This document shows positions 14,239 to 17,088 of a DNA stretch of 32,000 bases, piece after piece. Below the pieces are notes generated by a model. The model was not told the origin of the DNA. It did not search any database and worked only from the letters and a program-made list of their open reading frames with translations. Origin of the DNA: Candidatus Scalindua sp. (GTDB lineage Bacteria > Planctomycetota > Brocadiia > Brocadiales > Scalinduaceae); NCBI GenBank assembly GCA_031316235.1, contig JALDRA010000001.1:2910001-2942000 (forward strand), written 5' to 3'. How positions within the stretch are numbered: position 1 is the stretch's first letter; each line of letters begins with the position of its first letter. Position numbers and translations under genes: made by a program.

Positions 14239-17088
14239 ATGAAAAAAACATATACTGGAAATAGAAAAGGTTTCACCCTCACGGAACTGGTGATAACCAT
14301 CGGCATCATAGCAACCCTGGCGGGCCTGGGAACCGTAGGCATAAGCAAGGTAAGGGGCGTAAGCCAGCAGACAAAATGTGTCAATAACCTGAGGGGGATA
14401 TCTCACGCCCTGCAATTGTACTATAACGATTACCGTATATTCCCCGAAGACGGTTATCCAGATGACAGCGTCGACACCCTCCCGCTTTCAACTGAACTTG
14501 CCGCCTACATACCTGACAAGAGGACCTTTCTCTGCCCCGAAGACGATGATCCCTTCACCACAGGCAACTTTGCAAGCTATGACCCCTACTATGTTGCACG
14601 AAAGAGCCAGAATCAGGGTGAGGAGCTCGTTCTTGCCTGCCCCCGCCACAGAAACGCAAAGAATGCCACCAATCTCTTTTCCATCGGTTCCACAGAGATC
14701 TCGAATATTGATACCGTACTCGCCAACGGTCTGGAGATACCGCCTGACGGGACCACCGCGGAAAGGACCATCAGCAGCATAAACGACGAAATGACCTTTG
14801 CTGACGGAAGCAGGGCAAAGATCACCGATACTCAGGCGGGGTATGGGGTATTCCTCGTCCAGTCAGTCCGGCTCTATGACGGGACGCTGTACAGTGTCAT
14901 ACGGGTTGAGGACGAGGGAACCGTGGATGTCCAGGTTACGGCCGGCTCCAGATTCGAGGTAGTCACACCGAGCGTGATCATCGGCGTGCGGGGAACTGCG
15001 TTCAGTGTTGTTACCACCGACCAGGGGAATACGACAGATGTATCGCTGACCTCCGGAACGGTTATTGCGATTGACCGTTCAATGGGCAGGATAACAACAC
15101 TGACGGCCGGAGGTACAACTGACACTACGGTGTCGATCCCCATGCACTCTCACTGGCACTGGCACGCTGACGGCACATACCATAGTCATGACCATCAGGC
15201 CCCAAACTGGTCGCATCACGGGAACCCCGAGGCGGGCAAAAAGGCTGCAGGGAAAGAGGCGGGCATTGACAGTGATGGTGACGGCTATTCAGAGACAGCG
15301 GGCGATTGCGACGACAGTGATGAGTACATCCATCCGGGTGCTACCGATATCCCGGAAAATGGGATAGATGAGGATTGTGACGGGCAGGATGCGGTAACAG
15401 ACCCGAACGATAGAGACGATGACGGTGACGGGTATACCGAAAACCGGGGAGATTGTGACGATACCGACTACACCATATCCCCTGCTCATCAGGAGATATG
15501 TGACGGCAGGGACAATGATTGCGATGGTTCCATTGATGAGGGTGTGGCGCTCTCCTACTACCGGGACCTTGATGGAGACGGGTACGGAGATCCCTGTTCT
15601 GACTCTATCGCTGCGTGTGAACCTCCGTCACAGGCGTATGTAGCGGATAATACCGACTGTGACGATAACGATCCGAACAGAAACCCGGGAATGGATGAAA
15701 TACCAGGCAACCAGATAGATGAGGACTGTGATGGGTCGTATGGCGGTCCCGTATGCGGTAACGGTATTGTTGAGACAGGTGAGGAGTGTGACGATGGAAA
15801 TCTTACCAACGGTGATGGATGCAGCTCCAGCTGCCAGAATGAGGGAGATATCGACAATGATGGAGATGGGTATACTGAAAACGAGGGAGACTGTAGCGAT
15901 AGTAATGCCTCGGTTTATCCGGGAGCTGTGGAGGTATTTGATGGAGCAGACAATGACTGTGACGGTGCAGTTGATGAGGGACTCACCGACGCAGACGGTG
16001 ATGGATATGCGGTGAACAATCTTCCGATAGACCATGATGATTATGCCTATACGATTGGCACTGACTGTAACGATGCAGATGCCTCAATCAACCCGGGAGC
16101 TATAGAAGTATTTGATAGTGTCGACAACGACTGTGACTGGCAGGTTGATGAAGGGTTTACTGATGCAGACGGTGATGGATATGCCCTTGAAGTTGATGAC
16201 TGTGATGATACGGATGCTGCAATTAACCCGGGAACAGCAGAAGTGCCATACAATAACAAAAATGATGACTGTAATAGTGCTACCCCTGACAGCAGTTCTG
16301 GTGATCAGGCACTTATTGACTTGATAAATCAGCAACCGGCATTAACTTCAAGTGATCTGAAGTCGATTTTAATGGATGCATCACCTCTCTCAGACGCTGT
16401 TCTCATTGCAGCCATAGAGAGGACAGTACCCATGACATCCTCTGACCTTAAACATACATTAGTTGACAATTCGCCCTTAACGTCCGCTGTGCTACAAAGC
16501 GTTGCCGGTAGAAACCCGTCTATGACTTCCAGTGACAATAAAAGTGTACTTATTGCGAGTTCTCCATTACCAACTGAGATATTAGAACTGGTAATTGCTG
16601 GAAGTCCACCGATGGCCCAAAATGACCTGCAGAAGGTTTTAGATCTACAACCAACGCTGAATACAGACGATGATGCAGATGGATATACTGAGAATCAGGG
16701 AGACTGCAACGACACAGATGCCTCAATTAATCCGGGCAATTCTGAAATACCATACAATGGCAAGAATGATGACTGCAACCTCTTGACACCTGATGACGAC
16801 CTCGACGGCGATGGTTATGGAAAGGCTACCGACTGTGATGACAACGATCTGAATGTCAACCCTGGTGCCCCGGAGTTATGTGACGGGAAGGACAATGACT
16901 GCGACGGCCTGACTGATGAAAATTTAAAAACATGGTATTATTACATTGACAATGATGGAGATGGGTACGGAGATCCATACTCTGACTATGTTATCGCGTG
17001 TTCTCCCCCATCCCCAAATTATGTAATCAATAACCTGGACACAGATGACACTGATCAATACGCAGGAGCGCCCGCAGAAAGCCAATAG
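14239..17088 (+). CDS. Giant pilin/pseudopilin-like modular protein: prepilin N-terminal methylation motif, FecR-like domain, His-rich segment, ~10 MopE-type Cys/Asp-rich repeats
   Basis: [31 protein letters not shown], then [23 protein letters not shown] (pseudopilin/DUF1559-like head) and [19 protein letters not shown] (FecR-like). [18 protein letters not shown]..HH lies at 15145-15219. Repeats run from 15268 onward. The ORF opens at TTG 14215, but ATG 14239 gives the canonical short basic leader. Confidence 0.8.
   Translation: [949 protein letters not shown]
16330..16662 (+). repeat. Four tandem ~30-aa (90-bp) repeats of unknown type inside the giant protein
   Basis: [30 protein letters not shown] / [30 protein letters not shown] / [30 protein letters not shown] / [21 protein letters not shown]. 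Units start at 16330, 16420, 16510 and 16600. Confidence 0.8.

Follow-up and report, generated by a model that had tools for sequence, protein, structure and literature searches.

Modular pilins, which carry non-pilus domains behind a pilin signal and helix, were defined by Raynaud et al. in 2021, whose catalogue comprises over 1,200 such proteins falling into 264 architectures (PMC8179133). Dataset S1 of that survey lists the architecture IPR012902-IPR006860 in 12 proteins and IPR012902-IPR006860-IPR021655x3 in one protein, Dataset S2 contains IPR021655 repeats fused to the PilY1 tip-adhesin domain, and IPR006860 was grouped with the extra domains of no clear function (PMC8179133). IPR006860 is the FecR domain. 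Together with IPR021655, which we take to be PF11617, it makes up an architecture that fits the protein analyzed here—the product of an open reading frame (ORF) on the plus strand of a 32,000-nucleotide stretch of the genome of Candidatus Scalindua sp. (contig JALDRA010000001.1, positions 2,910,001 to 2,942,000), hereafter the window. We know of no member of the N_methyl-FecR-repeat architecture that has been studied, and full-text literature searches turned up no experimental characterization of the window protein.

Much of the nitrogen lost from the ocean is attributable to marine anammox bacteria of the genus Scalindua, which live attached or in aggregates. The appendages and matrix proteins at their surface are, to our knowledge, essentially undescribed; nothing relevant to pilins, type IV pili or prepilin peptidase of Scalindua emerged from literature searches. 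Two described systems bear on the locus besides the modular pilins. The MshEN domain is a high-affinity receptor for cyclic di-GMP (c-di-GMP) that controls extension of the mannose-sensitive hemagglutinin (MSHA) pilus (PMC5013675, PMC7096442). A biofilm-regulating operon of Burkholderia and Pseudomonas encodes a FecR-domain protein and a CHASE2 sensor as a pair (PMC5192318), and Sinorhizobium meliloti SMc02177 adjoins CyaD1, the FecR protein being dispensable for signal perception by the CHASE2 cyclases (PMC5498481). The window protein combines a pilin-type N-terminus with a FecR-fold beta domain, a His-rich hairpin and a long acidic repeat tail. On balance, we lean towards reading it as a minor (pseudo)pilin of modular type within a type-IV-filament system, that is, a filament-borne adhesin with an acidic repeat stalk.

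A prepilin-type head joined to a FecR-type domain

The gene opens with an ATG at 14239, preceded by a TTG at 14215 as an alternative open start, and extends to 17088 without internal stops over 2.85 kb, yielding a protein of 949 aa. The mature protein has a mass of 99.7 kDa and an isoelectric point (pI) of about 4; 28 Cys and 146 Asp (15%) mark its composition. Pilin part, FecR-fold beta domain and His-rich hairpin together form a conserved core of ~340 aa (Table 1). The combination of N_methyl, FecR, eight PF11617 stretches and DUF4215 makes the protein a modular pilin in the sense of Raynaud et al. 2021, its architecture class being among those of Dataset S1. The original prediction, made from the sequence of the window without database searches, had proposed a pilin-headed multi-domain protein of ~100 kDa within the modular-pilin frame, and this description fits.

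The N-terminus carries a class-III signal: a basic leader, Gly at -1, Phe at +1, where Phe or Met is expected, and Glu at +5. N_methyl (PF07963) matches residues 8-30 with 24.0 bits in the N-terminal fragment and 21.3 bits in the full protein (cut-off 21.2), and TIGR02532 scores 21.4 bits against a cut-off of 16.3. The motif K/R-G↓F-T-L-I-E-L (the arrow marks the predicted cut) is nearly invariant across about 110 full-length homologues. The signal is therefore under selection and no chance match, and the prepilin-peptidase site followed by a hydrophobic helix, as first read from the sequence, is borne out.

Homology to known pilins extends into a long alpha1 helix. A profile of the family, compared with solved pilins, aligned over positions 7-71 with Geobacter PilA-N (E 1.3e-10), Myxococcus PilA (9e-7) and GspG (5wda; 6e-4), and MshA was matched as well. 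By hhalign, residues 6-91 correspond to the GspG-like pseudopilins encoded in neighboring operons of other genomes (97.8% probability, E 7.7e-13), and these pseudopilins bear the same KGFTLxE signal. AlphaFold2 (AF2), run on a 50-sequence alignment, placed a helix at residues 14-65. The GspG family model TIGR01710 itself scored 18.2 bits, its cut-off being 88.85. The head had been likened both to pseudopilins of the type II secretion system (T2SS) and to DUF1559 proteins; the first half of this comparison is supported by the GspG-like homology, but the second is not. DUF1559/SBP_bac_10 (PF07596) reached 20.0 bits against a threshold of 23.3, and the match covers profile positions 9-45, or 37 of 268, at residues 44-80 only, so that membership of this family was rejected. 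Residues 92-154 gave no profile or fold match. A comparison of the predicted N-terminal structure with pilin folds, as the original prediction had suggested, thus yields the helix and a confident FecR domain but no pilin fold: Foldseek of the N-terminal model returned FecR-type domains only. The class-III signal, the alpha1 helix and the FecR fold are established.

The FecR assignment agrees between sequence and fold. PF04773 matches residues 223-275 with 26.7 bits (cut-off 24), AF2 modeled the beta domain confidently at about residues 155-320, with a predicted local distance difference test (pLDDT) score of 80-96, and Foldseek matched it to a FecR-type anti-sigma domain (4m0n, E 9e-6) and to the C-terminal signaling domain of PupR (6ovk, E 1.4e-3). 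The FecR-like segment of the original prediction is confirmed in this way, as is its His cluster, which amounts to 9 His within residues 303-327. AF2 strands lie at 302-308 and 314-320 of this motif, HSHxHxHxxGxxHxHxH...HHG, which is conserved in one of two subfamilies (A, to which the window protein belongs) and in short family members, and is absent from the other (B). That the protein is a FecR-type anti-sigma factor was considered and rejected, since the prepilin leader and helix replace the N-terminal cytoplasmic anti-sigma domain; no sigma factor or TonB receptor gene was found in the window or in related loci. The FecR domain and the His motif are probably the constant part of the family and a protein–protein interface, the partner of which is plausibly the periplasmic CHASE2 domain of neighboring c-di-GMP enzymes.

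An acidic tail of widespread repeats

The tail beyond the core comprises 609 aa, with 152 acidic as against 16 basic residues, and the protein bears no C-terminal sorting signal. PF11617 (Cu-binding_MopE) recognizes eight stretches of it (204.4 bits, E 1.8e-61, above the gathering score); eight instances of D-x-DGDG-[YF] and nine of D[GA]DG[YF] are present. Where about ten D-x-DGDG repeats had been predicted, the repeats are indeed present, but their count is eight complete Cys-paired units and a partial one. Between the first and second blocks of repeats lies a Cys-rich unit (residues 500-535) matched by TIGR02232 (42.9 bits vs 20.8) and PF13948 (27.7 vs 27); this DUF4215 unit resembles a pappalysin module in sequence. 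The position assigned beforehand to a myxobacterial-type Cys-rich repeat, 15754-15834, is exact and corresponds to residues 506-532.

A module of four units of about 30 aa, likewise noticed in the original prediction, is located at residues 689-806. The unit consensus is P-x-M-T-S-S-D-L-K-x-x-L-x-x-x-S-P-L-x-x-x-V-L. A hidden Markov model (HMM) built from the four units found it, in 3-6 copies, in no fewer than 15 further members of the family, carriers including P0054, P0115, P0016, P0083, P0017, P0090, P0242 and P0003; the giant orthologues P0122, P0123 and P0128 are devoid of it. The module has no Pfam match, and a large database homology search with it came back empty. At the DNA level, Tandem Repeats Finder (TRF) detected no near-identical tandem repeat within 14239-17088.

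In the AF2 model, the PF11617 repeats are confident (pLDDT 80-96) loop-only modules, the ~30-aa module is poorly defined (30-45) and the DUF4215 unit is of low confidence. Foldseek of the tail model against the PDB gave nothing significant, the best match being unrelated (E 1.6). No TSP_3 match at E <= 0.01 was obtained in the Pfam scan of the window protein, and the resemblance to thrombospondin type-3 loops, having neither a profile nor a structural match, was dropped. The only solved relative is a segment of MopE, residues 5-46 (E 1.2e-4), which is cleaved or invisible in the crystal, the Cu(I) site residing in a different domain (PMC3423442; PMC3912023). The analogy to the MopE copper site was accordingly rejected: what matches is the disordered N-terminal peptide of MopE*, and the beta domain with the Cu(I) site is absent. 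The metal-binding reading attached to the MopE-type motif has no structural basis, copper binding by the tail is not supported, and the Pfam label 'Cu-binding_MopE' is no evidence for it. The tail matches more than 7,600 proteins from many phyla, including Myxococcota, cargo of the Bacteroidota type IX secretion system (T9SS), bacteria of the candidate phyla radiation (CPR) and archaea, so that its repeat is a common component from which surface proteins are built. Surface proteins with homologues of the MopE-repeat tail include T9SS-sorted, MYXO-CTERM and lectin-fused ones.

Table 1. Features of the prepilin-FecR gene and of the paralogue preceding it; positions are those of the window, residues those of the window protein
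Feature	Position	Strand	Evidence
Class-III (prepilin) leader peptide, predicted cleavage after G11	14239..14271	+	PF07963, TIGR02532, conserved K/R-G↓F-T-L-x-E
Pilin alpha1 helix and start of alpha-beta loop, residues 12-91 (F+1, E+5, invariant C47, YYNDY-x-FPEDGYP)	14272..14511	+	Profile, hhalign, AF2
Conserved region, no assigned fold, residues 92-154 (invariant C99, C134; SYDPYY, CPRHR)	14512..14700	+	Alignment columns
FecR-type beta domain, residues about 155-300	14701..15138	+	PF04773, AF2, Foldseek
His-rich motif, residues 301-328, modeled beta hairpin	15139..15222	+	Alignment, AF2
PF11617 block 1, residues 344-499, three units (one long-form)	15268..15735	+	Pfam, motif positions, AF2 pLDDT 80-96, loop-only
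Cys-rich acidic repeat (myxo_disulf_rpt TIGR02232 / DUF4215), residues 500-535	15736..15843	+	Profile matches
PF11617 block 2, residues 537-680, three units	15847..16278	+	Pfam, motif positions, AF2
Family-specific module, four ~30-aa repeats, residues 689-806 (P-x-M-T-S-S-D-L-K...S-P-L...)	16303..16656	+	Local HMM
PF11617 block 3, residues 808-949, two complete and one partial unit, stop codon	16660..17088	+	Pfam, motif positions, AF2
Subfamily-B tandem paralogue (prepilin, FecR, 7 MopE repeats), three single-base frameshifts	12244..14003	+	ORF fragments, tblastn

A prepilin-FecR family expanded in Scalinduaceae

The window protein belongs to subfamily A, the largest type in a prepilin-FecR family that has undergone expansion in Scalinduaceae. 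A search with its N-terminal 340 aa retrieved 144 close homologues, the best 120 of which all have E < 1e-99 and are 51-89% identical; every named source among the 144 is Candidatus Scalindua or a Planctomycetota metagenome-assembled genome (MAG). Twenty-four loci were found in a scan of GTDB species genomes, all in Scalinduaceae-type MAGs but for one bin labeled Thermodesulfobacteriota. Most members measure 345-395 aa and consist of the core, the His-rich motif and a short Cys/His C-terminal motif, and others carry MopE or ~30-aa repeats. In members of ~390 aa (P0021, P0023, P0030, P0031 and others), an acidic linker is followed by a C-terminal ICHKPG-x3-KT-x-V-x5-L-x-x-H-L-x-HGD-x-x-G-x-C motif, at about columns 470-570 of the family alignment, which has no family assignment and is absent from the window protein.

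An identical 949-aa protein (P0121) is held at NCBI on a 4.15-Mb contig as 'FecR domain-containing protein [Candidatus Scalindua sp.]', and orthologues of 952, 941 and 892 aa (P0122, P0123 and P0128) with the same domain order are encoded in two other genomes. These are 87-88% identical to the window protein in the core and about 54-69% in the tail, and the tails of the family diverge far faster than the core. Paralogues form tandem arrays of up to five, with the order B-A-B-A-B in locus L001 and B-A-B in L006.

An exhaustive HMM search gathered about 123 prepilin-FecR clusters (50% identity) at E <= 1e-30. Distant full-length relatives that were sampled have no tail, Ig-like/HYR tails or Rib/DUF1093 tails. 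The core is accordingly a general carrier. One of these relatives, P0366 (L033, 10001-14413), attains 1,470 aa and bears Rib and DUF1093 repeats on the prepilin-FecR core, and P0304 (644 aa) bears Big_7, HYR and Glucodextran_B domains. The original prediction had held that the protein belongs to no characterized class. This is right insofar as the literature searched contains no experimental characterization, but the protein is not unrecorded, given the NCBI entry, the orthologues and Dataset S1 (PMC8179133). The architecture is already catalogued, though unstudied, and does not constitute a new class; what is new here is the ~340-aa core family with its tandem arrays and swappable tails, and its link to CHASE2, PilZ and MshE-type operons.

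Family genes lie beside filament and c-di-GMP genes

Synteny was assessed by tblastn classification of 31 fetched loci (L001-L031), 28 of them distinct. In about 19 of the 28, MshE, T2SSF or pseudopilin genes adjoin the family gene, and in about 15 a CHASE2 gene lies directly upstream of it, in both of two recurrent operon contexts. Context I starts with a sigma54 activator, CHASE2-GAF-HD, a short family member, two MshEN-T2SSE ATPases, T2SSF and two GspG-like proteins, and continues with GspH, an N_methyl protein, a GspJ-like protein and a lamin-tail-domain (LTD) protein. In context II, CHASE2-GGDEF precedes one to five long members alternating between subfamilies B and A and then PilZ; a response-regulator-GGDEF gene and a second paralogous operon follow (two MshE, T2SSF, two GspG). 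No secretin and no prepilin peptidase gene was seen in the fetched stretches of related loci. The two distant relatives checked, on long contigs (L032 and L033), stand as orphans in their genomes, with no T2SS or CHASE2 neighbors, and the synteny is therefore clade-specific.

The window itself holds no pilus or T2SS genes and no prepilin peptidase, as the original prediction had stated and window scans corroborated. Since the family stands directly beside T2SS-like operons in most related loci, this absence does not weaken the pilin reading. Locus L026 shows how the window relates to the others: there, a subfamily-B member comes immediately after flgK-flgL-fliW-csrA and is succeeded by PilZ and T2SS-like genes. 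The window therefore has its upstream flank in common with context II, with Pel genes in place of the downstream part. Neither the window gene nor L026 has a CHASE2 neighbor.

Some loci depart from the two contexts. L011, L015 and L021 constitute a third, in which one or two family members are followed by a divergently oriented paralogue of the context-I sigma54 activator (~40% identity) and no T2SS genes are visible. In L001, small 23S_rRNA_IVP (four-helix-bundle) genes (5756-6144 and 9494-9907) are scattered among the tandem paralogues of the giant pilin, and L006 has IS66 and DDE_3 transposases at the matching positions, which suggests that the giant-pilin array is a recombination or insertion hotspot.

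Surroundings of the window gene

Two neighbors of the gene had been overlooked: a broken paralogue directly upstream and a Pel operon directly downstream. On the 5′ side, a flagellar cluster (flgD-E-F-G-A-H-I-N-K-L, fliW, csrA) is followed by the tandem paralogue, fragments of which bear N_methyl, FecR and MopE matches split over three frames. By tblastn, the frame switches near 12408, 12489 and 13334, each time in a short C or G run, and three single-base edits restore an uninterrupted protein of 586 aa. Either this paralogue became a pseudogene very recently, or the long-read assembly was left unpolished here. Within it, a 144-bp tandem repeat in 4.3 copies of 84% identity (13156-13781) suggests that repeats have expanded recently. 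A near-perfect hairpin at 11764-11807 (20-bp stem, 4-nt loop) lies within the 82 bp that separate the stop of fliW (11759) from the start of csrA (11842); it could serve the fliW-csrA transcript in regulation or processing.

The Pel cluster (17330-30576) starts 242 bp 3′ of the window gene on the same strand, and no convincing terminator was found downstream of the window gene. It comprises GH114 (17330-18220), a 693-aa protein (18213-20294) with a signal peptide and no Pfam or NCBIfam match, two TPR genes, a GAF/PelD-like gene, a PelE-like gene, PelF (DUF3492 and GT4) and PelG; a gene for a PelC-like CsgG/LpoB-like lipoprotein lies on the minus strand (30010-30576). PelA appears to be split into two genes. 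The idea that GH114/PelA and PelB are split by a frameshift was rejected, as these are separate genes with starts of their own and a signal peptide. A sigma54-like -24/-12 element, TGGCCCTGATTTTGCT (17236-17251, plus strand), is found ~80 bp upstream of the first pel gene; it has one mismatch to TGGCAC-N5-TTGCW and is the only one-mismatch site of the window, where matches are no commoner than expected by chance. Ahead of the pilin genes, no sigma54 promoter was found; the window has 12 pattern matches, as many as chance would give. At the window end, a partial ORF (31238-32000, plus strand; >254 aa) with an N-terminal signal-like helix and no Pfam match runs off the stretch.

Proposed role and competing explanations

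As a subunit of a type-IV-filament system, the window protein would insert into the cytoplasmic membrane via alpha1 and be cut after G11 by a prepilin peptidase. One MshE-type system, encoded outside the window, would then incorporate it into its filament, probably as a tip subunit or in few copies; assembly of this filament may be switched on by c-di-GMP, as judged by analogy with Vibrio MshE. The filament would display the acidic, disulfide-stapled and probably Ca2+-loaded stalk extracellularly for attachment, aggregation or matrix binding. The adhesin-type tails (Ig-like, HYR, Rib, DUF1093) that distant relatives carry on the same core support this reading, as do the surface proteins with homologous MopE-repeat tails and the fusion of IPR021655 repeats to PilY1, and the adhesin or matrix role ventured in the original prediction is still the best functional guess.

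Several observations weigh against a filament-borne adhesin. The full-length N_methyl score is borderline, pilin homology by profile ends at about residue 91, AF2 models residues 66-155 poorly (pLDDT 41-72, and 41-52 in residues 92-154), and a canonical pilin beta-sheet head is not demonstrated. At ~100 kDa, and with the bulk of a FecR domain immediately behind alpha1, the subunit may be kept by steric hindrance from polymerizing anywhere but at a tip. Machinery for a type IV filament, prepilin peptidase and CHASE2 genes are all missing from the window. The published MshEN motif for c-di-GMP gave no regular-expression match in the Scalindua ATPases, the pattern being probably too strict, and their predicted c-di-GMP binding has the Pfam domain call as its one basis. 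As for the stalk, Ca2+ binding by the repeats is a reasonable expectation from their DxDxDG-type motif only, and structure searches found no solved structure containing a PF11617 repeat. Literature searches found no expression or localization data.

The point that the head is not canonical past alpha1 counts in favor of a different reading, in which the protein is no filament subunit and instead serves as a membrane-tethered signaling partner: its FecR domain and His module would bind CHASE2 of adjacent GGDEF/HD-GYP enzymes and tune c-di-GMP, the signal being either the amount of pooled pilin or a ligand bound by the tail, much as PilS senses PilA. A CHASE2 enzyme immediately upstream in about 15 loci of both operon contexts speaks for it, as do the role of FecR/PupR domains as known periplasmic protein–protein signaling modules (compare the 6ovk match) and the recurrence of FecR and CHASE2 gene pairs in unrelated bacteria (PMC5192318; PMC5498481). 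A plain anchor, however, needs no strict conservation of G-1/F+1/E+5, the window copy and L026 lack the CHASE2 neighbor, long MopE, Ig or Rib tails are hard to explain in a periplasmic regulator, and the S. meliloti FecR protein is not required for signal perception by the CHASE2 cyclases (PMC5498481). We regard such a signaling partner as rather unlikely, and it is compatible with the filament-adhesin reading. Both would be joined in a feedback loop, itself an unlikely elaboration, in which CHASE2-GGDEF and CHASE2-HD-GYP enzymes read the giant-pilin pool, the assembly state or a tail-captured ligand and act through c-di-GMP on the MshE-type ATPases and hence on the filament. If true, this would offer a testable input for the long-orphan CHASE2 domain, in line with the proteobacterial FecR-CHASE2 pairs.

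The downstream operon invites the idea of a Pel-matrix protein, the acidic tail of which would bind cationic Pel and thereby cross-link the matrix or anchor it to the cell. Pel polysaccharide is cationic, the Pel cluster is complete, close by and on the same strand, and the charge balance and pI of about 4 of the protein would suit such a contact. Yet not one of the 28 distinct related loci has Pel genes adjoining a family gene, the orthologues with 87-88% core identity sit in the CHASE2/PilZ/MshE context, and L026 has its flgK-flgL-fliW-csrA flank followed by PilZ and T2SS genes, so that the Pel adjacency looks like a local rearrangement—which it probably is, and as such it is weak functional evidence. 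A Pel-binding role is improbable. So, and quite strongly, is acquisition or storage of a metal (Cu, Fe or Ni) at the cell surface by the His cluster and the PF11617 repeats in the manner of MopE. The Pfam family name, the sequence match to MopE residues 5-46, the conserved alternating-His hairpin and a hint from immobilized metal affinity chromatography that the first 24 residues of MopE* add to weak Cu(II) binding (PMC3423442) point that way; on the other hand, the high-affinity Cu(I) site of MopE (His132, His203 and kynurenine) belongs to a beta domain without a counterpart here, the matching segment is disordered or cleaved in the crystal (PMC3423442), the His motif is missing from subfamily B, PF11617 repeats pervade the surface proteins of many phyla without any link to copper, and no metal transporter is a conserved neighbor. 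That the ORF is an annotation or assembly artefact, chimeric or read through as a result of repeat mis-assembly, would be in keeping with the three homopolymer frameshifts of the adjacent paralogue, which suggest local assembly or polishing problems, and with the frequent occurrence of repeat-rich orthologues on tiny contigs (L007, L009). It is nevertheless extremely improbable: independent assemblies encode orthologues (941, 952 and 892 aa) that are co-linear and agree in domain order, the frame is open throughout, and the repeats are diverged, with no near-identical tandem repeat in the DNA.

Read as a filament-borne adhesin, the family is a specific candidate for an adhesin that is displayed on filaments and coupled to c-di-GMP signaling. 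For pilus biology, the protein is an extreme modular pilin of ~100 kDa with a FecR domain in place of the pilin head; for signaling biology, the recurrent FecR-CHASE2 adjacency provides a handle on the sensor input of CHASE2.

Comparison with known systems

The closest relatives in design are the modular pilins, exemplified by Streptococcus sanguinis PilB with its vWA and PilC with its lectin domain. They share with the window protein the IPR012902 signal and helix followed by non-pilus domains, and the same logic has been proposed for them: the pilin is the carrier and the tail the effector. In contrast to the catalogued modular pilins, the extra domain of the window protein starts almost directly after alpha1, and a complete pilin globular domain is not evident; its tail is also far longer (609 aa), and the family is set apart by tandem arrays and by linkage to CHASE2, PilZ and MshE. 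It resembles GspG of the T2SS in its leader, in alpha1 and at the beginning of the alpha-beta loop, whereas the beta-sheet and Ca-site region of GspG are unmatched. The planctomycetal DUF1559 pseudopilin-like proteins match weakly, over residues 44-80 only.

The beta domain has the same fold as the FecR/PupR signaling domains (4m0n, 6ovk), and in Burkholderia BiofilmReg and S. meliloti SMc02177, as in the Scalindua family, the gene for a FecR protein stands beside a CHASE2 sensor. The family differs from FecR/PupR systems in having no cytoplasmic anti-sigma domain, no nearby extracytoplasmic function (ECF) sigma factor and no TonB-dependent transducer, and its anchor is a prepilin helix rather than the transmembrane segment of a bitopic anti-sigma factor or a Sec signal.

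MopE-related PF11617 proteins contain the same D-x-DGDG...DC-D-D...PG-x-x-E...D-N-DC repeat as the tail. The window protein is nonetheless no orthologue of MopE, as the copper-binding beta domain (MopE*/CorA, with its His-His-kynurenine site) is absent; the other MopE-related proteins employ Sec signals and T9SS, MYXO-CTERM or PEP-CTERM sorting and have no prepilin head. Finally, the operons of Scalinduaceae resemble the MSHA system of Vibrio cholerae in their MshEN-T2SSE ATPases and are flanked by GGDEF, HD-GYP and PilZ genes. They differ from MSHA in possessing two tandem ATPases and pseudopilin-type minor subunits (G, H, J).

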